64,000 nucleotides of DNA from Candidatus Fermentibacterota bacterium (GCA_030609965.1 JAUWSQ010000001.1:105787-169786); one strand, 5' to 3'. Numbered from the stretch's first letter, positions 51,043 to 64,000 are shown. Notes: generated from the letters alone by a model not told the origin. Numbers and translations: made by a program.

Positions 51043-51365
51043 GTCATCTCCCGATTCTGTGAAAGTCATTCATATGTTAAGATAATACCAAACAGGCACA
51101 GATACTATTCCATCAGAGGTGCCACCGGTTTCGTCAGTCTGTCAGAAGATGCATTTACCGCAACGTTGTAGTTCTGGTAGCAGTTTCGGGACCAAGGAAT
51201 TATTTTCAAGCTGCTGCGTATAAATGTATTTATATGTTTAAGCTATTGTGTATTTCATATAAAAGCGACTTAACTCTTTGTCAGTACTCGAATTACTTTA
51301 CTTATTGACAATGCCGGAGTATAATCATTTGAATGATATCACTCACTAGAAAGAAGAGGTGTATT

Positions 51366-53774
51366 GTGAGAATAATCACTGTTTTGCTTGTGCTGTTCAG
51401 TATGGCCATGGCGGAATGGGTCGACTTCGGCACTTCCGACCTGGATCATGCCAGCCTGGAAGTGGTGGAGTGTACCGCCTCCGGTTTTGTAGTGGATATC
51501 ATCCTTCCAGGATTCGGGAACAATTCCTTTTCCGAGGATGGATTGATATTCAACGCCATCAGTGTAGCCTCCCTTACACCGTACGCTGAAGCGGAGGGAG
51601 CTCCAATGCTTCCAAAGGCATCCTTCATGGCTGCAATTCCGAATAATCCCAATGTCTCCATAAGCGTGGAGGCACTTGAAACACCCATCGTTATAAGGAA
51701 CATCACTCCTTCACCCATGCAGCCGATCCCGATTGAAAGCTCATACGATCCGGTCCCCTTCACTTACCTGCCGGAAGCCTACAGTCATGGATCGTATCCT
51801 GCTTCGGAAGCTGTATTCGAGAATTCAGGAACCATTCGCGGAGTGAATATCGGCAGGTTCACAGTGATTCCTTTCCATTGGGATGCACAAACAGGTGATC
51901 TTACCGTCACCCCCAAGCTACGTGTAACTGTGGATCTGGGCGGAAGTGTAAGTATCGATCCAAGGCTTCGGAGCAGGTTCTTCACGAACACTTACAGAAC
52001 CCTTATCAATGCAGAAATACTCGGTGAACCCGAAAGAACAATAAGCTCAGAAACCAGTGAGCCAATAAGGGCCACCAATATCAGACAGGCAAGGGAAATC
52101 ACCGAGGCAGATCTGCTGATAATTGCCGGTGATGACTTTGTCGATACCATGATGGATGCTTTCATTGATGCGAAAATGGATCAGGGTTACCTCACTGCGA
52201 TAGTTGCCGCTGGCAGCTGGACCCAGACGGAGATCAAGGACTACATACAGAATGCCTACGATAACTGGGTTATACCTCCAAGTTTCATTCTTTTCGTTGG
52301 AGATCAGGAGGATCTTACCAGTTTCAGCGCCCCGGGCATGTACAGCGACAATCGCTACGTCTGCATGGATGGGCCCAGTGATTATCAGGCCGACATCTTC
52401 AACGCTAGATTCGTAACTCCCACAAGCCACTACCCCATTGTGGAGGAGAAAATTCTCAAATGGGAATACGACCCTCTGATGGACACGGATTTCTGGGGAA
52501 ACGTTCTCTGTGCAGGAATGCTCCAGGCACTTGGTGGTACAGTTGCAGACCGCTGGTTCTGCTTCACCTGTGAAACGGTCCGCGACACTTACATGAACAT
52601 CTACGGAAAGACCGTTCAGAGGGAATACACCAAGGACACTTCGGCTCCACCTCCTTATTACTACAGAAACGACCTTCCCAGCGCAGGGCAGGAGATTCCC
52701 AGTGATATTGTCTGGGACGGTAATGCTGCAGGTATTCTTGAAAGTGTGAATGATGGAGTTTTCCTGGTTCAGCACCGAGACCATGGCGGCGTTTCAGGCT
52801 GGGGAGACCCTGCTTTCTATATATCGGACCTCGCAGGCTTAACGAACGGTGAGAAAACTCCAATGGTGATGAGCGTCAACTGCCTTACAGGAAAATTCAG
52901 CCTTGACTGTTTTGCTGAAAACCTGTTCAGAATGGAGGGCGGGGCGGTCGGTGTCCTTGCAGCAACTGAAGTCAGCTACAGCTATTGGAATGATTACGTC
53001 TGTTACGGTCTTTACAAATCCTTCAACGATGAGTACACGAGCCCCCCTGCGCTGTACACTGATCCCACTGGTAATTACCTTACCGGCCAGGCTCTTATGT
53101 GCGCTAAAATTGAAATGGAAACATCCGCACCATTTTGCCCGTATCCAACTAACAGGGCAGAAACCGAGTGGGATCTTTTCCACTGGTTCGGCGACCCGAC
53201 AATGGATATGAGAACCGATGTTCCTCACAGTATAAATGTAACAGCTCCTGTAAATCTGCCTGTCGGTTCCACCCAGGCTATTTTCTCTGTGAGCGATCCC
53301 GAGGGTGTTGTAGATAACGCTCTTGTATGCATTACGCATGACAGTCTCTGGGCAAGCGGTGTCACCGACACAACAGGCAGCGTTACGCTTACTTTCGATC
53401 CCATCGGAGGCCTGACCGACATATGCTGGATGGTGACCGCTCATAATGCACTTCCAGAAGAGGGCGTTATTAACGGAATGGGAATCGAGGGTGATCCAGA
53501 GGGAACTTTAACATCCATTGTAGGATTACCTCATCCAAACCCGGCAAGCGGCAATGTTATCTTCCCGGTCACGCTCTCAACCGGAGGTCAGTTCGAGATG
53601 ACTATCTACGATACCGCCGGAAGAGCTGTTGAAATGATACATTCAGGGGAACTTGAAGCCGGCTCTCATTTCCTTATCTGGAATACGCAGGAAATGCCTC
53701 AGGGCATCTATATGATTCGATCCATCGACCCGACAGGCTCGATTACAACAAACAGACTTGTTGTGTGCAGATAA
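51366..53774 (+). CDS. Gingipain-like C25 cysteine peptidase with propeptide and T9SS-like C-terminal domain
   Basis: GTG 51366; LLIIAGD, RDHG (His), SVNCLTG (Cys), FHWFGDP, PHPNP..IYDTAGRAV..GIYMIR. Confidence 0.9.
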   Translation: MRIITVLLVLFSMAMAEWVDFGTSDLDHASLEVVECTASGFVVDIILPGFGNNSFSEDGLIFNAISVASLTPYAEAEGAPMLPKASFMAAIPNNPNVSISVEALETPIVIRNITPSPMQPIPIESSYDPVPFTYLPEAYSHGSYPASEAVFENSGTIRGVNIGRFTVIPFHWDAQTGDLTVTPKLRVTVDLGGSVSIDPRLRSRFFTNTYRTLINAEILGEPERTISSETSEPIRATNIRQAREITEADLLIIAGDDFVDTMMDAFIDAKMDQGYLTAIVAAGSWTQTEIKDYIQNAYDNWVIPPSFILFVGDQEDLTSFSAPGMYSDNRYVCMDGPSDYQADIFNARFVTPTSHYPIVEEKILKWEYDPLMDTDFWGNVLCAGMLQALGGTVADRWFCFTCETVRDTYMNIYGKTVQREYTKDTSAPPPYYYRNDLPSAGQEIPSDIVWDGNAAGILESVNDGVFLVQHRDHGGVSGWGDPAFYISDLAGLTNGEKTPMVMSVNCLTGKFSLDCFAENLFRMEGGAVGVLAATEVSYSYWNDYVCYGLYKSFNDEYTSPPALYTDPTGNYLTGQALMCAKIEMETSAPFCPYPTNRAETEWDLFHWFGDPTMDMRTDVPHSINVTAPVNLPVGSTQAIFSVSDPEGVVDNALVCITHDSLWASGVTDTTGSVTLTFDPIGGLTDICWMVTAHNALPEEGVINGMGIEGDPEGTLTSIVGLPHPNPASGNVIFPVTLSTGGQFEMTIYDTAGRAVEMIHSGELEAGSHFLIWNTQEMPQGIYMIRSIDPTGSITTNRLVVCR

Positions 53775-54454: not shown

Positions 54455-55477
54455 TCAGGGGGGCTTTACAAACACGTCTCGTCTGCCGTCCTGCCACTGC
54501 TGGTACCGTTTAAATATGATCTCCATGATTCGCTCGCAGCTATGATCATCATCATATGCGACACAACAGTGCAGCAGTCTTAGCAGATCGTCCGTGGTTT
54601 CGTATCCGTCAAGGAACACCCCGATGTTATCGACATTCCCGAAGAACGTCCCGCATTGAAAGGCAGCAACATTCTTGAGTCGCCAACGAGGAGCCTCGAA
54701 GTTGTACCGCGCCTTGATGAATAAGACCGGCTTGTCCATGGAGATCGCAGTAATCATTGTGCTGGCAATGTCAGAAATGAATAAGTCGCAGGCGGTTATC
54801 AGCTCGAGCGCTCTCGAGCCGTCGAAGCAGCGGACACCCCGGTGAAACCGCGCATACGTCCTAAACCTGTTGACTGCCTTCTGCGCCTCTCGGTGGTCAC
54901 AGATGTTGAAGTGAAGGCAGAAAATGAACTCGCATGGTCCAATATCGTCGCGGATCTTCTCGTAGATAGGGATCGCCCGGCGCTGGTTGCCCCTGAACAG
55001 CTGGTTGGGAGCTGTCGGATAGAAAACGATCCAGGGAACCGCTGGATCGAGGCCGGTATCATTGACAATCTCCTGGCGCCTACGGGCCACATTGAAACGC
55101 TCGTGGAAGATGGTGTCCCATTTCGCGTATCCGCCGATGACAAAGCGTGGGTTGTTCCTGTCAACGCCGTTATTGTTCAGGATCAGTTTTCCGCTGATAA
55201 CGCACAGATCCGCGTCGACAAAGCTATAGGGAGTACCCTTCAGGCCCGTGAGATTGTGCGGCAACAGCACCTTGAATACCTGGGCCCGCTTCTCTCCGAG
55301 CTCTTCGAGTACCCTGGGGTCACAGGACACAACTACATCTCCTGGCGCGATGATCTCCGGTTGTAGCTCCTCGAACGCTACGTGGGGGATGTTGTTCGCC
55401 TGGCAGTACTCAACCATATACCCGAGATGATCCGATAATATTTTCGATTGGGATAGGTAAAACTGGAGCATCACCAC
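54455..55477 (-). CDS. CDP-glycerol glycerophosphotransferase (TagF)-like GT-B protein
   Basis: HNLTGLK, GYAKWD, FYPT, LH, ACDLFISDIASTMITAISMDKPV. Confidence 0.7.
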   Translation of the reverse strand: MVMLQFYLSQSKILSDHLGYMVEYCQANNIPHVAFEELQPEIIAPGDVVVSCDPRVLEELGEKRAQVFKVLLPHNLTGLKGTPYSFVDADLCVISGKLILNNNGVDRNNPRFVIGGYAKWDTIFHERFNVARRRQEIVNDTGLDPAVPWIVFYPTAPNQLFRGNQRRAIPIYEKIRDDIGPCEFIFCLHFNICDHREAQKAVNRFRTYARFHRGVRCFDGSRALELITACDLFISDIASTMITAISMDKPVLFIKARYNFEAPRWRLKNVAAFQCGTFFGNVDNIGVFLDGYETTDDLLRLLHCCVAYDDDHSCERIMEIIFKRYQQWQDGRRDVFVKPP

Positions 55478-56030
55478 CTCGTCAACGCAGCGAGCAAGCC
55501 GCCGACATTACCTCTGATTGAAACTGGATCGCTCTGGCCACGATCCTGATTACGGGGATTGGAATCATAGAGTAGTTTTCAAGGTCAAAGCGACCTGGAG
55601 CAAACTGAATCTTCATTATAAACCATTCAGCAAATCCCCCAAAACAACGTGTTCTTTCAAACAACCTCCGATTCCTACCTGAAACTCACAATACAACCTG
55701 ATAAAGCTGTAGTCAACCAATGTTGCCATCAATTGCGTCGGGATGTCATCCTGTCAGGATGTGTAATCCGCTCAGGATTCACACACCAGTTCCATAGGTT
55801 CAGGAGGTGACCTGGGATCTTCCCAGAGATCAAGGTGTTTTTGACTTAGTCAAGCTCCCCATGCAACCGGCAATGCTGGTGTCAGGATACACCTGATGGT
55901 TGAAGGCTGCTCTATGAAAGAGATGCCTTTGCAAGCGGGGCGGCATCATTTTCTCACCGCACTTCGGGTACTTCAGGGCATGGTTGTCGAATGCAACATA
56001 GAAGGTTATCTTGACAAAAATAATCAACTA

Positions 56031-56059
56031 TTGACCAATTTTGCTAATGTGTGTAAAAT
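56031..56059 (+). promoter_or_regulatory. Sigma70 promoter of the rSAM-peptide operon
   Basis: TTGACC-N17-TAAAAT, 59 nt upstream of ATG 56118. Confidence 0.65.
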
Positions 56060-56117
56060 ACGGTATAGGATTAGTGTGGTTTCTGATGATATCAAGACTA
56101 AAACCAGGAATAGGAAA

Positions 56118-57329
56118 ATGAGCAAAACGCGCTCAGAACCAAAACTTGAGTCTGTATCCACGATTGAAAAAACTCCTCGTAAGCGTAAAAAGATATTCTC
56201 AGTAGTTTTTATGCCTACATTGGCTTGTAATTGCAGATGCTCCCATTGTTTTGAGGAATTAGCCGAGGGGAATGCGGAAGATCACAACTGGGAACTTCAC
56301 TTCACTGAGATGCGCAGGCTGGCTGAGACGCTTAAATGCAATACGCTGAAAGTGTACTGGCAAGGCGGCGAGGTCCTTTGCTTGCATCCGGATACCGTCC
56401 AGTGCGCACTTGATATTGGGGCTGCAGTTTTTAAAGATAGTGATATTACTCTTGAACATCATCTACAAACGAACTTGCTCCTCTATGAAACGTCCAGATG
56501 GAAGGAAGTAATCTCCAATTTTTTCCTCGGCAGTATAAGCTCCTCTATTGATCTGCCGAATCTCTTCCGCCTCACGCCAACCCTGGGTGTGGATGAATAC
56601 AACCGGGCGTGGCTCAAGAAAAAAGATATGGCTGAAAGAGACGGGTTCACCGTCAGTGTAGTCAGCTTACCGAACCATAAAACCCTGGAACTTGGCGCCG
56701 AGCGCTTCTACCGATTCTTCCGGGATGAAGCACTGTTGAAAAACGTGCAGGTCAACTTCCCATTCCCTGGAAATAGCGGTTTGGAACCGCTGGATCTCAA
56801 AAAGCTGGCCGGATTTATGACCGATTTGTACAAGATATGGGTCGCATCAGGCAGAGACCTTAATCTGAGCCCGTTTAGGGCAATGGAAGACAGGCTGTTA
56901 CGAGGTAGAGGCGCGCTTCCCTGCTGCTGGACGTACAGCTGCGCTTCCATCCTTCTGTCGATCGGCCCGAACGGTGGTGTAGGCCAGTGTGATTGCTGGG
57001 TAGCCACTTATAGTGATCATAACTTCGGAACGACCGATCAGCCCGTTGAGCAGCTCTTGGATTCGGATCAGCGGCAGCCGTTTTTGAACAGACCCCTCAA
57101 ACTGATGCGGGATACCAAGTGTGGTGAGTGCAAGTTCTGGGGAATTTGTTTTGGTGGTTGTCCGATTCGCGCGTTTGCATTCACAGGCAACCTGATGGAT
57201 GTCGATCACTATTGCCCAGTTTATTATGAAATGTTCTCAATCATTCTGGATCAAGCAGAGCATGAAAGCCAGTTAGAGTATGAATTCAGTGAGGAGGTAG
57301 AATTCAGTTCGTCGGAGAAAGGTGGGTAG
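56118..57329 (+). CDS. Radical SAM/SPASM peptide maturase (anSME-like)
   Basis: PTLACNCRCSHC, WQGGEV, LQTNLL; SPASM CCWTYSC..GQC..CGECKFWGICFGGCP..YC. ATG 56118 preferred over 55896. Confidence 0.9.
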   Translation: MSKTRSEPKLESVSTIEKTPRKRKKIFSVVFMPTLACNCRCSHCFEELAEGNAEDHNWELHFTEMRRLAETLKCNTLKVYWQGGEVLCLHPDTVQCALDIGAAVFKDSDITLEHHLQTNLLLYETSRWKEVISNFFLGSISSSIDLPNLFRLTPTLGVDEYNRAWLKKKDMAERDGFTVSVVSLPNHKTLELGAERFYRFFRDEALLKNVQVNFPFPGNSGLEPLDLKKLAGFMTDLYKIWVASGRDLNLSPFRAMEDRLLRGRGALPCCWTYSCASILLSIGPNGGVGQCDCWVATYSDHNFGTTDQPVEQLLDSDQRQPFLNRPLKLMRDTKCGECKFWGICFGGCPIRAFAFTGNLMDVDHYCPVYYEMFSIILDQAEHESQLEYEFSEEVEFSSSEKGG

Positions 57330-57361
57330 TTTCTCATCAAGTATGAAGGGAGGAGAATGGT

Positions 57362-57802
57362 ATGACTCTGGAAAAGCAACCAGATGGAAGAAAAGAGAAG
57401 AAGAAAACAAAGAAAGAAGACGACAGCATTGACAGACGCGAAGCGCTGAAGAGAATTGGCCGGTACTCGGCCATCGTGGCCGCCGCGCTTACAACCGGCA
57501 TTCTCAAGACAGGCTGCGGGAGCAATCCTACCGCCCCATGGTCGGATGCGTACAGCGACTGGAACAACACCTACAGCGACTGGAATGACGGTTACAGCGA
57601 CTGGAATGACGGTTATAGCGACTGGAATGACGGTTATAGCGACTGGAGCAACGCCTGGTCCGACTATAGCGACTGGAGCAACACCTGGTCCGACTATAGC
57701 GACTGGAGCAACACCTGGTCCGACTATAGCGACTGGAGCAACTGGTCTGACTCTTATAGTGATTGGAATAATTTCTGGGGAAATTGGATGCAGTCGTGGT
57801 AG
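57362..57802 (+). CDS. Putative precursor peptide/lipoprotein with Trp/Tyr-Ser-Asp repeat core
   Basis: RBS GGAGG; DRREALK + hydrophobic stretch + KTGC; residues 60-146 contain 17 W, 9 Y, 1 F. Confidence 0.85.
   Translation: MTLEKQPDGRKEKKKTKKEDDSIDRREALKRIGRYSAIVAAALTTGILKTGCGSNPTAPWSDAYSDWNNTYSDWNDGYSDWNDGYSDWNDGYSDWSNAWSDYSDWSNTWSDYSDWSNTWSDYSDWSNWSDSYSDWNNFWGNWMQSW
57551..57772 (+). repeat. Coding tandem repeats: 4 x 21 nt, then 3 x 30 nt plus shortened copies
   Basis: TAYAGCGACTGGAA(TGACGGT/CAACACC) x4 (57551-634); TATAGCGACTGGAGCAAC(G/A)CCTGGTCCGAC x3 (57635-724); a 27-nt copy and a diverged copy follow. Confidence 0.95.
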
Positions 57803-57844
57803 GTTGTTAGCACTGTAACTCAAGACGCATAGTTTGCACATCAA

Positions 57845-59818
57845 TTGATGGGTAATATGAAGATAAATCAGAGATGTGCATATCCAGAAATACAAAGCGC
57901 ATCTGTATTAATCGTTGCACCGTACGGATATTTCTCTCTCGCAACAGGCTTCTTTCTTGAAACGCTTAAGGCCTGCCTTAAAGAAGTAAAGAATGTAAGA
58001 TTCCTGACCCGAAGTTACCCCAGGATACATACCGAGGTTGATATCTCCTTCGTCAGGGACATGTTGCTCCTTAAACCAAATGTTATCGGTTTCTCCAATT
58101 TCTTCTGGAATCTCGAACAGAACATAAAGCTTGCCCTGCTGGCAAAATCCCTCCTTCCAGATACATTTGTTATTTTCGGTGGACCCCAGGTTGGGGATAC
58201 CAGCTACGCAGCCGATCTCCTGGAGAAGCATAATTGTATCGATGCAATTCTCCGTGGTGAAGCTGATTTTACGTTTCCAGAACTGGTTCGTCAGATCTTT
58301 GCAGATGAAAAGATTGGTGGACTTGCCGGTCTCGTGCTTAGGGACAGGAACGGTATAAGTGCCGAACAGGGCCAGTGTTACGTTCAGGATATTAACACAC
58401 TCCCCATCGTCTTCCATTCTGAAAGCGAATATGCGGCTAAATATCTTAATGTAAACAACATTATTCCCCTGCAAACCTTGCGCGGTTGCCGCCAAACATG
58501 CTCTTACTGCCTTTATTGCACCAGTACGCCGCGGGTATTCTCCCTTGAACGCGTCGAGAAAGAGGTTGAATTCCTATGCCAACACGGCGCGCGATATGTG
58601 CGTGTATGTGACAGTCATTTTGGAGGGTCGAAGAAACGCGCTATGGATCTTTTTAATGTTATCCGGTACCATAACACTGAAACGATGTTCAGTATTTATC
58701 CTGATCCCCGACATCTCGACCTGGATTACATTCGAGCAGCCGGCAGTGCAAATTGCAGGATTATTTCACTTGGTGTTGAAGCATTGGACCCGGCCGTTTC
58801 ATCGGAAGTTAACCGTGACTCAACCGGCACCGAATTTCTGGATACCCTCCATCTCCTGAACGAGTACGGGGCTGTTCCGCAATTGGATATGATGTTCGGG
58901 CTGCCGAAGCAATCCGATCGGAGTTTTCAGAAGGATCTGATACATCTCAAGCTTGAAGGGGCGCGCAATATATTATTTTCCCCTCTGATGGTTTTCCCTG
59001 GAACCGAGTTGGACTCCACCATGAACGATAAAGGTATATCGACTCTGAGAATCCCCCAGCAGTATGGATATGATAAAACGCTCGGCTTGGGCGAGTATAC
59101 CGCAATGATTGTTACAAGTATATGCTACCGGCTTCTATACATGTTTCCGCGCATGGATTATTATGCTCGATTCATTAGTAGCGACAAGACGAAGTACAAA
59201 GAGAGGCTTGAAATATGGTTCTCCGAAGCAACCGCATCGAACCGGGCCGATCTGCTCACGCTGTATGATGAACTAGGTACGTGTTCGGAATATATAAGAG
59301 CAAATGCGGACTCACTTTCAGATAGGGCCAATAAGTTTTTCAGCAGTTTTCTACATGATCGGTACGATAAGCCTGAGTTTCTTGACGGAATAGCACACAT
59401 GGATATTATGGAAATAGCAATGAAACAGCGCAGAGATGAGTTGGCAAGGGATATATATCCTCATCCAGGTTCAGTAAGCGTTATTTCAGAAGGTGATTTT
59501 GCGAAGCTGGCATGGGTGCTCAGTAAAGATGCCTGGCTTGAAATCCATGCTGTGCCGTATCAGTTCGCATCAATGGGACGAGGTCATCCTTCCGGGAGAC
59601 CTTCTGACAAAGTCTATTGTATTTACTTCTGTCCAACTTGCAAGGTCTTTTATATTGACAAAAATGAGTTCGAATTTCTTCAACGTTTTACACAAGCAAA
59701 GCCACTGTCCGACAGCGAGATTGACTATTCGTCTGAATACATGCAGAAGGTTGGCAGGTGGGGGCGCATAGGAATCCTTGTGATTGACTCACCATCTCAT
59801 CAACCTGGCCTGGTTTAA
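57845..59818 (+). CDS. B12-dependent (class B) radical SAM enzyme
   Basis: PNVIGFSNFFWN..VIFGGPQV..GEAD B12 domain; TLRGCRQTCSYC; SLGVE; MFGLP; long C-terminal extension. Confidence 0.88.
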   Translation: MMGNMKINQRCAYPEIQSASVLIVAPYGYFSLATGFFLETLKACLKEVKNVRFLTRSYPRIHTEVDISFVRDMLLLKPNVIGFSNFFWNLEQNIKLALLAKSLLPDTFVIFGGPQVGDTSYAADLLEKHNCIDAILRGEADFTFPELVRQIFADEKIGGLAGLVLRDRNGISAEQGQCYVQDINTLPIVFHSESEYAAKYLNVNNIIPLQTLRGCRQTCSYCLYCTSTPRVFSLERVEKEVEFLCQHGARYVRVCDSHFGGSKKRAMDLFNVIRYHNTETMFSIYPDPRHLDLDYIRAAGSANCRIISLGVEALDPAVSSEVNRDSTGTEFLDTLHLLNEYGAVPQLDMMFGLPKQSDRSFQKDLIHLKLEGARNILFSPLMVFPGTELDSTMNDKGISTLRIPQQYGYDKTLGLGEYTAMIVTSICYRLLYMFPRMDYYARFISSDKTKYKERLEIWFSEATASNRADLLTLYDELGTCSEYIRANADSLSDRANKFFSSFLHDRYDKPEFLDGIAHMDIMEIAMKQRRDELARDIYPHPGSVSVISEGDFAKLAWVLSKDAWLEIHAVPYQFASMGRGHPSGRPSDKVYCIYFCPTCKVFYIDKNEFEFLQRFTQAKPLSDSEIDYSSEYMQKVGRWGRIGILVIDSPSHQPGLV

Positions 59819-59971
59819 TGACAATGAATACGGTTTGCATATTAGCTTCCTGAATTCATTCGAGAATTACTGAGTATTTTGCACCTGGGCGAGCCGACTA
59901 CGGGTGCAAATTTCGAAGAGTATCTTGCGAGATACAGGAAAGCTCTTTCCGGAATCGTGTTCAAAACGTAA
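59818..59971 (+). pseudogene. Collapsed remnant of a paralog of the first rSAM domain of the downstream gene
   Basis: MTMNTVCILAS* versus MKVNSVHVLIS; LGEPTTGANFEEYLA versus MGEPTLDPDFEEYLA; exact 19-nt match 59944-62 = 60943-61. Confidence 0.7.
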
Positions 59972-59989
59972 GCGCAGCTTTTAAACCTC

Positions 59990-60018
59990 TTGCCCGGGTT
60001 TTAAAAGAAAAATTATAA
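59990..60018 (+). promoter_or_regulatory. Internal sigma70 promoter
   Basis: TTGCCC-N17-TATAAT. Confidence 0.65.
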
Positions 60019-60182
60019 TACTACGCGTGATTTGAAATATTTAGGGGAAGGTAAACGGTTTTCTCGGTGTTCTCAACGATACGGAACACCGGGAGGAGGT
60101 ACTGGCGGTATCATCCTAACACATTCGGCAAACCCAACCCGAAGGGGAGGGGCATGCCGATATCAATTATTGAAGTGAAATA

Positions 60183-62261
60183 ATGAAAGTAAACAGTGTA
60201 CATGTATTAATCTCTAAATCCTGCCCAAACAACTGTATATTCTGTACTGTTGCTGGCCGGAGGAGAAGACAGATTTTCCCGGAAAAGAAAGAGATCATCC
60301 GCTTCATGAGGGATTCTGCGGCGGCGGGGACCCGGAGTCTGGTTTTCTCCGGCATGGGGGAGCCCACTCTAGATCCTGATTTCGAAGAATACCTTGCATT
60401 AGCAGAGGAATTGGGATTTGACAGCATCAGCCTTTTTACGAATGGTTATGGCCTTAAGGCAGAAGACGTCCGCCGCTGGAAAGATTATGGCCTTTCATCA
60501 GTCTTAATTTCCATGCATGGAATGGAAGACGGCCACGATCGCAATGTTCAGCGAAAGGGGTCTTTCAGGGAGGCTGTTTCCGCTATACGGCTATATTCAG
60601 AGTATGATATCTTGGTTACCGTCAACACATGCCTGACCCGGCTTAACCTTCCCGAGATACCGAGGCTGTGCGAATTCCTTGCTGGCTTTCGGGTGATAAC
60701 ACACACGCTCACATTCCCTGAGTGGTCAGGTAACGTGCCACTCTACGAAGAAAATATTCTCGATTACCACGAAGTCAGTGAAGTAGCGGGTGATCTGATC
60801 CCTGAAGGGAATATGATAGCAATGTTCGAGGATATGCCATATTGCCTGGTTCGTAATAAAACTCGCGAGATGCAGAATCGGGGAATTGTCGGGCTGCTCG
60901 ATGGTACCGGAGAGCATGAATTTGACGGGAACGCAAGGAAGATCTTTCCGGAATCGTGTTCGGGTCGCGGGTGCGTATTCCAAACCGTTTGTTCAGGTTT
61001 TGAGAGGAACTACATCAAAGCCCGGGGTTGGCAGGATCTCAAGGAAAGGGTTGGTCGGTTTCTTGATCTTCTCAATGATCCTGAGCACGGGGATACAATA
61101 TTAGCAGAATTACCCGATCACCCTCGTACGCGCAGATCCCCGAAAGGAAGCCGACGCAGGTCCGACCGTGGACCTCATAACAGCCAGGTCGTGATCGTTA
61201 AACCAACCAGCCGGTGTAACGCAGGTTGCCGATATTGCTCAAGCTATAAAGAATCGCAACCACCCGATATGTCGCCTGACTTCCTCGACAAGATGTATGC
61301 GGAGCTGTTCGAATATGCAGCGCTCCAGGGCAAAAAATACATTACATTCTTGTGGCATGGGGGAGAACCATTACTCATGGGCAAATCCTTCTATGACCGC
61401 GCATGGGGTCTGACAACCACCGTTAAAGATCTGAGAATCACACATATCCTCCAGAGCAACATGCTGCTTCTGGATAATGATTGGGTGGAGCTGCTCAGCC
61501 GGTACAATGTACACATCAGCAGTTCTGTTGACCCGATTGGTCAAGACCGTATTCTCAAGGATGGTCGTCAGCAATATCCCGACTGGCTTGACAAGTTCAT
61601 CCTGGCTGCTTCCGGCGGCCTGCACTTAGGATTAGTGTTTACGGTCACCCCGAGCCATATTGATAGGTATGCTGACGTTTATCATTTCTTTAAGAACCTG
61701 CAAACCCTGTCAGCAAGACCCCTGGGCGTTCGCTTGAATCCGGTCTACCCGGCCGGGGCCGCTAAAGGGCTGGACCCTGGGGAGTTGATCGACCCAGCCG
61801 ATTACGGTGAATTTCTTTGCCGGCTATGGGATCTCTGGTGTAATGATGGGAAATCTTTCCCGCTCTCACCGTTTACAGATTGGAGTGAGGGGAAAGGAAC
61901 AACATGTGAATTCTCCGGACGATGCCAGGATAATTTCATAGAGGTTAGCGGCAATGGTGATATTCACCACTGCGGAAGGTTTACAGACGCAGGTTTGGTG
62001 CTGGGGAACATTACTAACGCCAAGCTTGTGGATATACTGAAACACCCTCAGATGAAAGAAATTCGTCGGCGTTCAGAGCTGCTGAAAGATGGATCGTGTA
62101 AAGGATGCCCTTTCTGGGAACTTTGCATGGGTGGCTGCCCTTGTCACGCTTATACTACATTCGGAGAAATAACGCGCGAAACCCCCTACTGCCCCGCCTA
62201 CAAAATGTTCTTTGCTTCGAGCGGCCTGGGCAGTGTTGAAGATAAGCTGGAGGTTAATTGA
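60183..62261 (+). CDS. Tandem radical SAM fusion: rSAM (HxsC-like) + rSAM/SPASM
   Basis: CPNNCIFC..SGMGEPT..CSGRGCVFQTVC; linker; KPTSRCNAGCRYC..WHGGEP..LQSN..CEFSGRC..HHC..CKGCPFWELCMGGCP..YC. Confidence 0.88.
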   Translation: MKVNSVHVLISKSCPNNCIFCTVAGRRRRQIFPEKKEIIRFMRDSAAAGTRSLVFSGMGEPTLDPDFEEYLALAEELGFDSISLFTNGYGLKAEDVRRWKDYGLSSVLISMHGMEDGHDRNVQRKGSFREAVSAIRLYSEYDILVTVNTCLTRLNLPEIPRLCEFLAGFRVITHTLTFPEWSGNVPLYEENILDYHEVSEVAGDLIPEGNMIAMFEDMPYCLVRNKTREMQNRGIVGLLDGTGEHEFDGNARKIFPESCSGRGCVFQTVCSGFERNYIKARGWQDLKERVGRFLDLLNDPEHGDTILAELPDHPRTRRSPKGSRRRSDRGPHNSQVVIVKPTSRCNAGCRYCSSYKESQPPDMSPDFLDKMYAELFEYAALQGKKYITFLWHGGEPLLMGKSFYDRAWGLTTTVKDLRITHILQSNMLLLDNDWVELLSRYNVHISSSVDPIGQDRILKDGRQQYPDWLDKFILAASGGLHLGLVFTVTPSHIDRYADVYHFFKNLQTLSARPLGVRLNPVYPAGAAKGLDPGELIDPADYGEFLCRLWDLWCNDGKSFPLSPFTDWSEGKGTTCEFSGRCQDNFIEVSGNGDIHHCGRFTDAGLVLGNITNAKLVDILKHPQMKEIRRRSELLKDGSCKGCPFWELCMGGCPCHAYTTFGEITRETPYCPAYKMFFASSGLGSVEDKLEVN

Positions 62262-63151
62262 TGCATGTTTTCCCAAAGAATACCCTGGTGAATACTCCGT
62301 GCGAAACTATGCTGGATGGCGAATGTTCTGTTTCCGTACGAATTAGCACACCTGATTCCGTTCCTCGTATACGTGAGTTTTACGGCAAGAGACTATTCAA
62401 CCTGGAAATTGAAGGTGAGTTGATAAAAGATATTGATCTTATACGTGCAATTGATGTAAACCGTGTCCGGATCATACTAGGAGACATCAACATACTTGAG
62501 GTTGAAGGCAGGTTGATAGAAGCATTGCAGAAAATGGGGGCTCAATCCGTGTTCGAGATTAACCCGGATAAGAAGCTTTTAAGAAACATCAACTTCCTCA
62601 CAGGCCTTGATATATTAGTGCATATTGATATGACAAAACCGGTCCAGGATGAAAACGCACTGCTGCAAGCGGTCGATTTCTATCTTCACAATCCTATGTT
62701 AAGAACACCGATTGAACCCATACATAACCTGCTTGTAACGATGAACCGAAGGCGGGGGCGTACATTGTGGAGTACGGAACTGGAAAACGTGAAGACTAAC
62801 TTTTACGTTAGTGATCAAGGGGAGGTTTCTCTTTCGAGTCGGTGGATAGAGAATGACATGAAATACGGTACGTTGGATGATTCCGTTAAGGATTTCATGA
62901 AATCAGAGCTATACAATAAATTGGCAACCTTGAAAGAAGAAATGTTCCGAAGTAAGAGTTCTTGTGTTTTCTGTGGAAATCTGGATGTATGCAAAGGCTT
63001 CCTGCGCGCAATTGACTCGGAATGGCCATGTGATATCTGGAAGAAGGTCTTCAATATTCTTCAAGGTGCGGTGCGGGAAGGAAAGGATCTCCTGAGGAAA
63101 ATTGATCAACAGAAGGAACTGGCAAAATCGCCGGATGAACAGGTTACATAG
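62258..63151 (+). CDS. Accessory protein with SPASM-like C-terminal Cys cluster and no CxxxCxxC
   Basis: 4-nt overlap with the upstream gene; CVFCGNLDVCKG..WPC. Confidence 0.75.
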   Translation: MMHVFPKNTLVNTPCETMLDGECSVSVRISTPDSVPRIREFYGKRLFNLEIEGELIKDIDLIRAIDVNRVRIILGDINILEVEGRLIEALQKMGAQSVFEINPDKKLLRNINFLTGLDILVHIDMTKPVQDENALLQAVDFYLHNPMLRTPIEPIHNLLVTMNRRRGRTLWSTELENVKTNFYVSDQGEVSLSSRWIENDMKYGTLDDSVKDFMKSELYNKLATLKEEMFRSKSSCVFCGNLDVCKGFLRAIDSEWPCDIWKKVFNILQGAVREGKDLLRKIDQQKELAKSPDEQVT

Positions 63152-64000
63152 TCCCGGAATCAGGTTTCATGATGTTTCAGGATAAGCATGTCCCAAAACA
63201 GCGAAATGGTGCCTGTTTATACGCCGTTTGTTGACGATGCATTTTCTGCTGCTTTTATCCAGTGTATCGACGGTGAAGTCGGGGCGTTCACCTTGTCCGG
63301 TGCACCAAAGCTAAGAGTTCCCAGTTCCGGTCAACATTTTCCTGTTAGAGTGAGATTATGTGCTTGGATTCCGGTTTTAATGGTAATCGAAGCGTACCTG
63401 TTATTTGATACATTCGGTAATGAGACGTATTTTCTTCGACTTGTAATTCAGTTTCCATTTATCATGCTCAACTTTGAACAAAGGCCTGAAGTAATTCTCA
63501 GAACGAGACACACCGTTTAGATTGATTGCATCGGGATACATCATCCTCTGAAGCATGTTCCCATTCATATTAATGTACGCCATCAATCTAATACTCTACG
63601 GACTTTCCTTATACATACGTCTGATATTTCCTTAGTTACTAAGCATTTACGGATAATACGAGTGGGTCATATATGACGTACAGTTGTTTCATGTTGTACA
63701 TTAGAGCTTTACGCTCGATGAATTGGATTAACTCTAATGTTCAAATAAACAGTCTGTGCATAAGGTGGAACTGCATATAGAATTTACATAATAACTAACG
63801 TTAACTGATTCACTATGTTTATCATAAGATATATATATATTATGATGTTAACTATATATCATCTATAAAAAAGGTTTTATATTCCGATTTCAAATCTATA
63901 TTGTTCATGTAAAACAAATATTCTATATAAATGTATTCAATAGAATCTTTAGATATCTCCATATCACTGATTATATAATCTATAAATTGTTCTTTTGTAT

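Follow-up and report, generated by a model that had tools for sequence, protein, structure and literature searches.

A five-gene cassette that encodes four radical SAM (rSAM) domains around an aromatic repeat protein is real and conserved and, judging by the literature searched, apparently undescribed. It lies in a 64,000-nucleotide stretch of DNA (the window) from a Ca. Aegiribacteria MAG. In the reading that we favor, and hold to be somewhat the more probable outcome, the tail of the repeat protein would receive three-residue, cyclophane-type cross-links and probably C-methyl groups in the cytoplasm, after which the protein would cross the membrane through Tat and be held there by a lipid anchor.

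Organization and conservation of the cassette

The five genes that an earlier note on this DNA had proposed, for an rSAM/SPASM enzyme (here enzyme A), a peptide, a B12-type rSAM, a dual rSAM and a Cys-cluster protein, were all found as ORFs on the plus strand (Table 1). The spacing is also as the note had described it, with short gaps or overlaps apart from the region at 59.8 to 60.2 kb; in order, the genes are separated by gaps of 32, 42 and 364 nt and a 4-nt overlap. Four CxxxCxxC motifs, kept in homologues, and the Radical_SAM, SPASM and B12-binding signatures from Pfam and NCBIfam bear out its count of four rSAM domains. The long spacer is missing in relatives, in which the B12 and double-rSAM genes overlap. 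Its first part is a degraded duplicate of the 5' end of the double-rSAM gene. A sigma-70-like match was noted at 59990-60019, and a search of Rfam gave no match.

Table 1. Features of the cassette and of its substrate gene (window coordinates)
Feature	Position	Strand	Remarks
rSAM/SPASM enzyme A	56118-57329	+	403 aa; ORF opens at 55896, start at 56118 backed by homologues
Substrate (repeat peptide/protein)	57362-57802	+	146 aa
Substrate, predicted signal part (residues 1-52)	57362-57517	+	Lys-rich n-region, DRREALK, conserved G-R-Y-S-A-I-x-A-A h-region, lipobox KTG-C52
Substrate, core tail (residues 60-146 and stop codon)	57539-57802	+	24 non-overlapping aromatic-x-Asp/Asn triplets
B12-rSAM (class B)	57845-59818	+	657 aa
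Spacer between B12-rSAM and double rSAM	59819-60182		364 nt
Double rSAM	60183-62261	+	692 aa
Cys-cluster partner	62258-63151	+	297 aa

The cassette enzymes all score below the curated cut-offs of the NCBIfam families, and no description of the cassette was found in full-text literature searches, in keeping with the note, which knew of no described cluster of this composition. As to the functions that the note had listed as missing, a scan of the five cassette proteins and four flanking ORFs detected neither a PqqD/RRE domain nor an ABC exporter. Contrary to the note, the window is not strictly free of proteases, since a C25 peptidase with a T9SS tail is encoded at 51333-53774, 2.3 kb upstream of the cassette. 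This peptidase is not conserved with the cassette elsewhere, its gene is missing from the sister locus L010, and neither a protease nor an exporter is conserved among the approximately 10 cassette loci. No family match pointing to a sulfatase was found among the cassette proteins, the flanking ORFs scanned and the called genes of related loci. Lipid-type rSAM genes (TIGR04072-like and TIGR04190-like) also lie near the cassette and are not conserved with it. The cassette of locus L006 is surrounded by restriction-modification, Shedu-like and DUF1016 genes. PADLOC gave only generic matches.

The cassette recurs in about 10 independent metagenomic or MAG loci assigned to Fermentibacterota, Poribacteria, Myxococcota and "Deltaproteobacteria"; 40 relatives of the host lack it. 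Eight neighborhoods (L005, L006, L007, L009, L010, L012, L029 and L033) contain the double-rSAM, partner, enzyme A, substrate and B12 genes together, in one of two circularly permuted orders. The double rSAM has some 30 full-length homologues with 36 to 85% identity, and a class B rSAM gene was found in every complete homologous locus. The earlier note had named homologous clusters without such a peptide as a refutation of its proposal. The proposal withstood this test: a substrate gene of the same kind was found in 9 loci, which represent several phyla and both gene orders, and it lies between the SPASM (enzyme A) and B12 genes in every locus that is not cut off. It is therefore hard to see the repeat protein as an ordinary lipoprotein in the neighborhood of rSAM enzymes acting on, for instance, a lipid or cofactor. 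Although the nearby lipid-type rSAM genes fit such an arrangement, their lack of conservation with the cassette, the fixed position of the substrate gene and the relationship of the SPASM enzymes to a clade that modifies proteins and peptides make it very improbable.

Predicted export signal of the substrate

Judged by its sequence, the "leader" of the substrate appears to be a twin-arginine lipoprotein signal. Of the 15 family members, 14 have the twin-arginine motif, the exception being the L006 protein with NK instead of RR; by inspection the motif reads DRREALK in the window protein and SRRSFLQ, DRRNFLK or DRRSFLM among other members. A lipobox, [G/A/S]-C, follows the h-region in all 15. 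Tat-signal HMMs remained below threshold (TIGR01409, 12.3 bits with a cut-off of 16.7; weak matches for TIGR02811). The same genome encodes lgt (140 bits) and lspA (97 bits), both over the cut-off, and an extra (second) tatC outside the genus-conserved context is found, together with tatA, 3 to 4 kb downstream of the cassette, just past the end of the window. In L010, tatA is located directly 3' of the cassette; such proximity of tat genes is confined to the Aegiribacteria lineage (2 related loci), the other loci being without them. A dedicated protease and exporter would then be missing because the "leader" is a secretion signal of this kind.

The mature part of the window substrate is predicted to comprise 95 residues, so that the earlier proposal of a heavily modified product of more than 80 residues is reasonable as to size, while its frame has to be changed from a classical released RiPP to the maturation of a protein tail. 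Eleven of the 15 substrates are 226 to 285 aa long and have a middle region of approximately 100 to 150 residues between signal and tail. In one of them this region was confidently modeled as a PPC/collagen-binding-like β-sandwich, the mark of an exported protein, and most of the long forms probably contain such a domain. A folded domain in the substrates of most relatives would argue for protein-tail maturation.

The alternative is that the RR region serves only as a leader and that an unlinked protease cuts the cross-linked tail into one or more small cyclophane peptides similar to dynobactin or the triceptides, which are released, e.g., as an antibiotic. We consider this unlikely, as the lipobox Cys is kept in every substrate, the middle region is common and in the modeled case folded, and no protease or exporter accompanies the cassette across loci, the C25 gene being missing even from L010. 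On the other side stand the nearest enzymes, which are DynA, DarE and triceptide maturases, the observation that all characterized triceptides are proteolytically matured (PMC12912966), the C25 peptidase upstream of the cassette and the pump genes beside related short precursors in L025, described below. A short precursor of the triceptide type with a leader cut before the first motif was rejected for the family on the basis of the RR-type signal with lipobox (15/15), the length of 11/15 members and the lack of a conserved protease.

Aromatic triplets of the substrate tail

The 24 triplets of the window tail (9 YSD, 5 WSD, 4 WSN, 3 WND, 2 WNN and 1 WGN) are found among 27 aromatic residues at positions 60 to 146, whereas 2,000 shuffles of the same tail contained 8.9 on average and never more than 17. 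The tail has 17 acidic residues, no basic residue, no His and no Cys, and it ends in WGNWMQSW; the DNA of the gene contains 21-nt and 30-nt tandem repeats. Both the motif and the C terminus are conserved in homologues. Among the 10 tails analyzed, none of which contains a Cys, the pairing was Y..D in 62 triplets, W..N in 59 and W..D in 21, and the triplet counts were higher than in all 2,000 shuffles for 9 tails and equal to the maximum for 1. The second residue (X2) differs widely among Trp triplets (S, N, G, T, E, D, V or K) and is Ser in 57 of 79 Tyr triplets, whereas the third (X3) stays Asp or Asn and the first stays aromatic. A variable X2 after Trp with a fixed X3 is as expected for a cross-link between residues 1 and 3.

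Putative maturation enzymes and the partner protein

In enzyme A the CxxxCxxC motif is formed by C37/C41/C44, and a GGE motif and eight SPASM cysteines, all conserved, are also present. The enzyme and the C-terminal half of the double rSAM are paralogues (25 to 27% identity). The N-terminal domain of the double rSAM (residues 1 to ~280) is HxsC4/NirJ/AhbD-like; C14/C18/C21 make up its RS motif, and C221, C259, C264 and C270 are auxiliary cysteines. A basic linker connects this domain to a DynA/anSME/ChlB-like C-terminal domain (residues ~335 to 692) with C345/C349/C352 and a full SPASM domain. The best NCBIfam matches of enzyme A were DynA (88.9 bits), TIGR04083, DarW and anSME, all far below their cut-offs. 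For the two SPASM enzymes, scores were 181.4 and 88.9 bits for DynA (cut-off, 450) and 158.6 and 68 bits for anSME (TIGR03942; cut-off, 349), followed by YhhB (116, cut-off 445), AmcB (97, cut-off 425), FxsB (93, cut-off 370) and GrrM/OscB (88, cut-off 310); the XyeB cyclophane synthase was also matched below its cut-off. A PDB search gave anSME (1e-21) as the best match and ChlB at 4.5e-15. By these comparisons, the nearest relatives of the cassette SPASM domains are DynA, anSME and the cyclophane synthases of the ChlB type, in a common clade and with membership in none of these families. Membership in anSME itself was rejected on its score, the lack of a sulfatase match among the proteins scanned and the called genes of related loci, and the lack of a sulfatase-type C/S-x-P/A-x-R motif in the window tail, and a daropeptide (DarE-type) assignment was rejected on DarE scores of 85.6 and 66.8 bits (cut-off, 650) and zero [WYF]-x-[WYF] motifs in that tail.

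Because the DynA and anSME scores are close (181 versus 159 bits) and all are far below the cut-offs, sequence does not fix the type of reaction. The same substrate and export route could be combined with another chemistry, such as anSME-like conversion of Ser to formylglycine or another C-β oxidation, ether or C-N links, or epimerization. In addition to the anSME scores, the frequency of Ser at X2 of the Tyr triplets and the ability of clade enzymes to form C-O and C-N links (PMC11499958, PMC9055067) are compatible with this alternative, to which we give a minor though real chance. Varied X2 residues after Trp next to a constant X3 and a constant aromatic residue 1 fit a 1-3 cross-link better than Ser oxidation, however, and the tail shows neither the sulfatase-type motif nor the aromatic-x-aromatic motif of daropeptide ethers. 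As the cassette enzymes appear to be distant members of the anSME/DynA/ChlB clade and of the class B rSAMs, they probably carry out variants of reactions already described.

The class B enzyme is a probable C-methyltransferase. Its NCBIfam matches were KedN5, TIGR03975 (RiPP C-methyltransferase) and ApyD, all below the cut-offs, and its best PDB matches were TokK (5e-17) and CysS (2e-15). In Pfam, Radical_SAM (53 bits) was over the cut-off, and B12-binding scored 26.5 bits (cut-off, 32.1). Like TokK, CysS, KedN5, ApyD and TIGR03975 proteins, it appears to have an N-terminal cobalamin-binding domain and an rSAM core; only the first ~270 residues align, and a 250-residue C-terminal part is without a match.

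The partner protein models as a degenerate rSAM-like α/β domain without CxxxCxxC, followed by a partial SPASM motif of four invariant cysteines (C236, C239, C245 and C258). Its predicted fold (pLDDT, 71.6) weakly matched SuiB and anSME as top hits (Foldseek E value, ~2e-3; TMq, ~0.46). The cluster thus holds four active-looking domains and one pseudo domain. The partner domain is also fused to HxsC-like, DynA-like and CXXX-repeat maturases, and in two other architectures (L024 and L025) it again occurs beside RR-leader peptides with aromatic-x-Asn/Asp motifs. In L025 (Aminicenantes), a related minimal system, the 70-aa precursors adjoin an OEP/MFP/MacB-type pump.

Discussion

On the best reading of these sequences, the cassette joins chemistry of the triceptide type to the overall plan of the HXS antiphage system. 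Triceptides provide the precedent for three-residue cyclophane formation by rSAM/SPASM enzymes (PMC11499958, PMC12912966), and the anSME-like clade of their maturases (XyeB, YhhB, GrrM/OscB, FxsB, AmcB, ChlB and MicB, as well as DynA of dynobactin) gives the best HMM and PDB matches here. As in triceptides, the third residue is fixed in the aromatic-X-X triplets that make up the cassette substrate, one substrate contains several motifs, and no RRE/PqqD domain was detected in the proteins scanned. In contrast to triceptides, enzyme scores are far below the family cut-offs, up to 24 motifs are located on a protein tail, a predicted twin-arginine lipoprotein signal without a conserved protease takes the place of a cleaved leader, and three further rSAM-type domains (HxsC-like, class B and pseudo-rSAM) are obligatory partners. 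The pairing of Tyr-Ser-Asp with Trp-x-Asn/Asp is not among the motif sets described in the two papers cited.

The HXS antiphage system (HxsA-D, TIGR03976-03979) has an rSAM-matured periplasmic HxS-repeat effector (Li et al., Nat Commun 2026, PMC13128918). As is proposed for the cassette, HXS uses two different rSAMs and a non-rSAM partner to process an exported protein that consists of a signal, a binding domain and tripeptide repeats and that then acts in the envelope. The N- and C-terminal domains of the double rSAM match the HxsC4 and HxsB models, respectively. Membership in HXS was rejected: the scores were 77.4 bits for HxsB (cut-off, 370) and 85.7 bits for HxsC4 (cut-off, 500), neither HxsD nor HxsA was matched, and the window tail lacks His. 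Moreover, the two rSAMs are fused in the cassette and accompanied by a further SPASM enzyme and by one of the B12 type, and the substrate has a predicted Tat lipoprotein signal and no peptidoglycan-binding domain. Since its repeats are acidic and aromatic (17 acidic and 0 basic residues) instead of basic His-x-Ser, DNA capture by charge is unlikely for the cassette product.

SPASM rSAMs that introduce several intramolecular cross-links into a protein-sized substrate in the cytoplasm, ahead of its transfer to its final location, are also known from QhpD/QhpC (quinohemoprotein amine dehydrogenase) and CrpC/CrpA (PMC13692751). These links are Cys thioethers, whereas the cassette tail is without Cys, and the QhpD model scored only 31 bits. 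The export routes, that of QHNDH included, also differ from the one proposed here.

Under the favored reading of cross-linking before Tat export, the two DynA/anSME/ChlB-like domains (enzyme A and the C-terminal domain of the double rSAM) would abstract a C-β hydrogen from the third residue in the cytoplasm and join this carbon to the aromatic ring of the first residue, yielding up to 24 three-residue cyclophanes. At a guess, the two SPASM domains may divide the sites between them, one acting on Tyr-x-Asp and the other on Trp-x-Asn/Asp. The HxsC-like domain and the class B rSAM would introduce further changes, most likely C-methylation, and the pseudo-rSAM four-Cys partner would act as a substrate-holding or scaffolding subunit, possibly by reading the unusually conserved RRxFLxxxG(K/R)(Y/F)SA signal region. 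The rigid, modified protein would then leave through Tat, which accepts folded cargo, and Cys52 would be lipidated by Lgt/LspA, so that an acidic, aromatic and protease-resistant tail stays on the envelope. By analogy, an envelope-protective role, e.g., in antiphage defense, is one possibility. More speculatively, and with odds that we put well below those of the mechanism itself, the cassette may belong to a large class of systems, as yet without a name, and be its most elaborate form; in this class a twin-arginine signal would double as an rSAM-maturase leader read by the pseudo-rSAM four-Cys domain. Instead of a secreted peptide, the product would be an envelope-anchored "poly-cyclophane" protein whose acidic tail of 95 residues bears some two dozen rings. 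Such a tail could form a covalently stiffened barrier at the surface or in the periplasm, for instance one that keeps phages out as HXS does, or a coat that binds metal or withstands proteases.

In summary, with one substrate, four rSAM domains and a rule that sets Tyr-Ser-Asp against Trp-x-Asn/Asp, the cassette offers a testable system that could reveal how maturases share sites, and the partner domain is widespread, occurring in 447 representative proteins. RiPP-like clusters with a "missing" protease or exporter may be explained by general secretion signals. If the proposed mechanism is true, rSAM cyclophane chemistry would not be confined to small secreted natural products but would also be used to staple the tails of exported lipoproteins covalently. 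Tat would be the means of exporting a substrate that is already rigid, and a second, chemically different rSAM-matured envelope repeat protein would stand beside HXS.

Results

The five genes of the cassette (see the table) form a run of ORFs in one orientation, with intergenic spacings of 32, 42 and 364 nt followed by a 4-nt overlap. The earlier note had read them as genes for an rSAM/SPASM enzyme, a peptide, a B12-rSAM, a dual rSAM and a Cys-cluster protein, all on the plus strand, and the ORF listing together with Pfam and NCBIfam searches bore this out. Its count of four rSAM domains also stands, as homologue alignments revealed four CxxxCxxC motifs that are, like the GGE motif and the SPASM cysteines, invariant or nearly so. 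The top NCBIfam matches are DynA, TIGR04083, DarW, anSME and DarE for the first SPASM enzyme, here referred to as enzyme A, and KedN5, TIGR03975 and ApyD for the B12-rSAM, which is closest in the PDB to TokK and CysS. The double rSAM is HxsC4/NirJ/AhbD-like in residues 4-225 and resembles DynA (181 bits), anSME (159 bits), TIGR04083, YhhB, AmcB and FxsB in residues 335-680. No match of these three enzymes reached a curated NCBIfam family cut-off.

Table. Coordinates of the cassette, its surroundings and features of related loci (L002 is contig DNA around and past the window end)
Feature	Position	Strand	Description
C25 peptidase gene	window 51333-53774	+	gingipain family, T9SS C-terminal sorting domain
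Enzyme A	window 56118-57329	+	403 aa; rSAM/SPASM
Substrate	window 57362-57802	+	146 aa; GGAGG ribosome-binding site ahead
B12-rSAM	window 57845-59818	+	657 aa; B12-binding domain
Insert	window 59819-60182		364 nt
Sigma-70-like match	window 59990-60019		inside insert
Double rSAM	window 60183-62261	+	692 aa; two Radical_SAM domains, one SPASM domain
Partner	window 62258-63151	+	297 aa
B12-type rSAM gene	window 63852-64000, running on into L002 739-2853	-	704 aa
tatC	L002 3185-3898	-	194 bits, over cut-off
tatA	L002 4196-4402	+
Further rSAM module	L002 4700-8280 and 8340-9827	- and +
Split double-rSAM gene	L010 9399-11479		overlapping 171-aa and 544-aa frames
Poribacteria cassette	L006 1-7300
Minimal relative	L025 269-7782		Aminicenantes MAG

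The 364-nt insert between the B12-rSAM and double-rSAM genes opens with a degenerate copy of the 5' end of the double-rSAM gene and holds a sigma-70-like match. Unlike in the window, the two genes overlap (TAATG-type coupling) in the related loci L010, L029 and L033. This suggests that the insert is a local duplication or rearrangement that divides the operon into two transcription units. An Rfam scan of positions 55000-64000, spacer included, detected no riboswitch and no RNA family.

A search of 5.8 billion proteins yielded about 30 full-length homologues of the double rSAM, with 36 to 85% identity. Neighbourhoods were recovered for a sister lineage with about 80% identity (L010), a Poribacteria MAG (L006), a Sandaracinaceae MAG (L007, the same record as L011), a "Deltaproteobacteria" MAG (L012) and loci L005, L029, L033, L008 (the same record as L034) and L009 (the same record as L032); L027, L028, L030 and L031 are fragments. 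Two of the further loci came from GTDB species genomes and eight from a metagenome scan, so that co-occurrence statistics rest on approximately 10 loci. The order enzyme A, substrate, B12-rSAM, double rSAM, partner is found in the window, L010, L029 and L033, and the order double rSAM, partner, enzyme A, substrate, B12-rSAM in L005, L006, L009 and L012 and, in part, in L030; the two are circular permutations of each other. In L007, the B12-rSAM gene is inverted and lies upstream of the double-rSAM gene. The double-rSAM gene of L010 is split, which may reflect a frameshift or an assembly error, and this copy may be inactive.

A six-frame scan detected one aromatic-x-Asp/Asn-rich gene per complete locus, always between the genes for enzyme A and the B12-rSAM. 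The proposal in the earlier note of a peptide belonging to these enzymes would have failed if homologous clusters lacked such a gene, and it was present in every complete locus. L008 alone shows none; this locus is truncated where its contig ends, and its B12-rSAM gene is inverted. The partner gene of the cassette subfamily is present in 2 of 185,579 GTDB species genomes, and the cassette is thus rare yet spread over several phyla.

Fifteen members of the substrate family were collected. Their N termini are Lys rich, and 14 of the 15 contain a twin-arginine motif (DRREALK in the window; SRRSFLQ, DRRNFLK and DRRSFLM elsewhere), the corresponding residues in L006 being NK. The motif is accompanied by an h-region, G-(K/R)-(Y/F)-S-A-x-A-A, that is unusually conserved between phyla, and by a [G/A/S]-Cys lipobox in all 15 proteins. 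A middle region of approximately 100 to 150 residues, in which Pfam finds no domain, is present in 11 of the 15 substrates; one such region was predicted to fold as a β-sandwich (pLDDT of about 95), most similar to the pre-peptidase C-terminal/collagen-binding domain of ColG (TM of about 0.7). The tail is predicted to be disordered, is made up of Tyr-Ser-Asp and Trp-x-Asn/Asp triplets, and ends in one of two conserved ways, AWGNWMQSW or WYNGEWDDGWLNYGYY. The window substrate has no middle domain and the longest tail of the family, with 24 nonoverlapping triplets, 27 aromatic residues and no Cys, and its mature part of 95 residues contains 17 acidic and no basic residues.

Over ten tails, the triplet pairs are Y..D (62), W..N (59) and W..D (21). 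Ser occupies the second position in 57 of 79 Tyr triplets, whereas many different residues occur there after Trp. The motif count exceeded that of all 2,000 composition-preserving shuffles in nine of the ten tails and equalled the maximum in L007. Fixed first and third residues around a free second one would be the signature expected for a 1-to-3 side-chain cross-link.

The partner contains four cysteines, C236, C239, C245 and C258 (CxxCx5Cx12C), that are invariant in seven orthologues and form a partial SPASM pattern; a weak SPASM match is its sole NCBIfam hit. In its AlphaFold model (pLDDT of 71.6), β/α units alternate and lead into a hairpin and the Cys region, and Foldseek placed SuiB and anSME first, along with TIM barrels, as weak matches (TMq of about 0.46; E of about 2e-3). 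We consider the partner, with moderate confidence, to be a degenerate rSAM/SPASM domain in which the SAM cluster has been lost. In an exhaustive profile search, 447 representative proteins matched the partner domain, and 47 of these matches were below 1e-30. The domain is fused to HxsC-like rSAMs (P0075, P0092, P0099 and P0037), to DynA-like SPASM enzymes (P0098 and P0151) and to a bona fide CXXX-repeat maturase (P0096; TIGR04115, 476 bits, over cut-off), and P0040 carries it too (hhalign probability of 98.3%).

The neighbourhoods of two other partner-domain architectures, L024 and L025, both encode aromatic-repeat substrates with an RR leader. The L024 substrate reads TRRQFMLKGAKWS... and then WRNYSNWRNYYNYYNW..., and L025 encodes two 70-aa peptides, SRREALKKVGLFSTAAA...GC-WYDDWYNYSDWYDYGDWANWWNN, adjoining an OEP/MFP/MacB-type pump. 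L025 is a minimal relative, in which RR-leader/lipobox peptides with a YSDW-type tail and the pump are accompanied by one partner-domain-rSAM fusion protein, and it may be a peptide-releasing version of the system. The partner domain and the RR-leader type thus travel together in at least three enzyme architectures, and we therefore propose that the partner is a substrate-holding subunit.

Tat HMMs match the substrate signal under threshold only, and it is therefore the motif that underlies its assignment to Tat. Both lgt and lspA were found in the host genome (a 2.6-Mb MAG, 81% complete), as were two tatC genes. One of these shares 76% identity with the housekeeping tatC of another contig, C28; it is located with tatA in variable DNA on the downstream side of the cassette, about 2.3 to 3.4 kb beyond the window end. 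The housekeeping copy has a genus-conserved context (permease, 3-dehydroquinate synthase, tatC, glycosyltransferase), whereas the cassette-side copy does not, and tatC is a single-copy gene in 10 of 12 genus-mates. In L010, tatA is located directly 3' of the partner gene. Tat genes are not a general feature of the cassette, being near it in the window genome and L010 but not in L005 to L009, L012 or L029. Since none is nearby in any of the other phyla, we view this dedicated copy as a reinforcement specific to the lineage and not as a component of the system.

On contig C51 of the host genome, the window occupies positions 105787-169786, and TatC orthologue clusters give the relatives of this host as Candidatus Aegiribacteria/Fermentibacteria. 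No copy of the double rSAM turned up in 40 relatives, including 24 genus-mates, and none of a flanking 340-aa gene in 25 genus-mates; in these searches the host genome alone had a match to either, which places the cassette in variable DNA. The 704-aa B12-type rSAM gene at the window end lies within a low-GC stretch (0.37 versus about 0.47 around it) and best matches the lipid-type family TIGR04072, under cut-off; other loci do not have it beside the cassette, and it was probably acquired separately. The rSAM module farther downstream encodes a TIGR04190-like B12/rSAM (312 bits; cut-off, 500), a PqqE-like rSAM/SPASM enzyme, a 205-aa CxxC protein and an MFS transporter and is unrelated to the conserved cassette. 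As the rSAM genes at L002 739-2853 and 4700-7663 are absent from homologous loci, they were rejected as cassette members. The C25 peptidase gene, 2.3 kb upstream, is not kept with the cassette in other loci.

Discussion

DynA makes Trp-to-Asn C-β links, and the class B relatives of TokK and CysS are methyltransferases acting on unactivated carbons. Within the anSME-like SPASM clade, some enzymes take a hydrogen from C-β and link this position to an aromatic ring at aromatic-X-X motifs, yielding triceptides (PMC11499958, PMC12912966). Enzyme A and the C-terminal domain of the double rSAM would most likely form up to 24 cyclophanes on the window substrate in the cytoplasm, and further modifications would come from the HxsC-like domain and from the B12-rSAM. 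Thioether chemistry of the sacti- or ranthipeptide type is excluded since the tails are Cys free, and daropeptide ethers are excluded since there is no aromatic-x-aromatic motif. The sequences could also accommodate anSME-like Ser oxidation, C-O or C-N links, or epimerization in place of cyclophanes. Following cyclophane formation, the product would be exported by Tat, which carries folded cargo, and lipidated at Cys52.

Similar to the triceptide pathway, the cassette shows the motif logic and the enzyme clade; however, it fails the leader/proteolysis feature and reaches no family cut-off. The HxsA-D antiphage system (HXS) likewise uses paired rSAMs and a partner to mature an exported repeat protein with a binding domain; the cassette falls outside Hxs, and the tail of its substrate is acidic instead of basic. 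In HXS, the non-rSAM partner HxsD forms a core complex with HxsC (PMC13128918). In the Poribacteria MAG, type I restriction-modification, DUF6119, DUF1016/YhcG and Shedu SduA_C-like genes immediately precede the cassette, a single case that hints at a defence island. The PADLOC library gives no support for a defence role, returning generic viperin and PDC-M51A radical SAM matches and nothing specific.

In summary, the cassette is real and conserved, and no description of it was found in the literature searched; a full-text search on rSAM enzymes with lipobox or Tat precursors likewise found nothing relevant. By inference as to both chemistry and role, it would combine triceptide-type chemistry with HXS-type protein maturation, and what sets it apart is the substrate-export design together with a four-plus-one set of rSAM domains.
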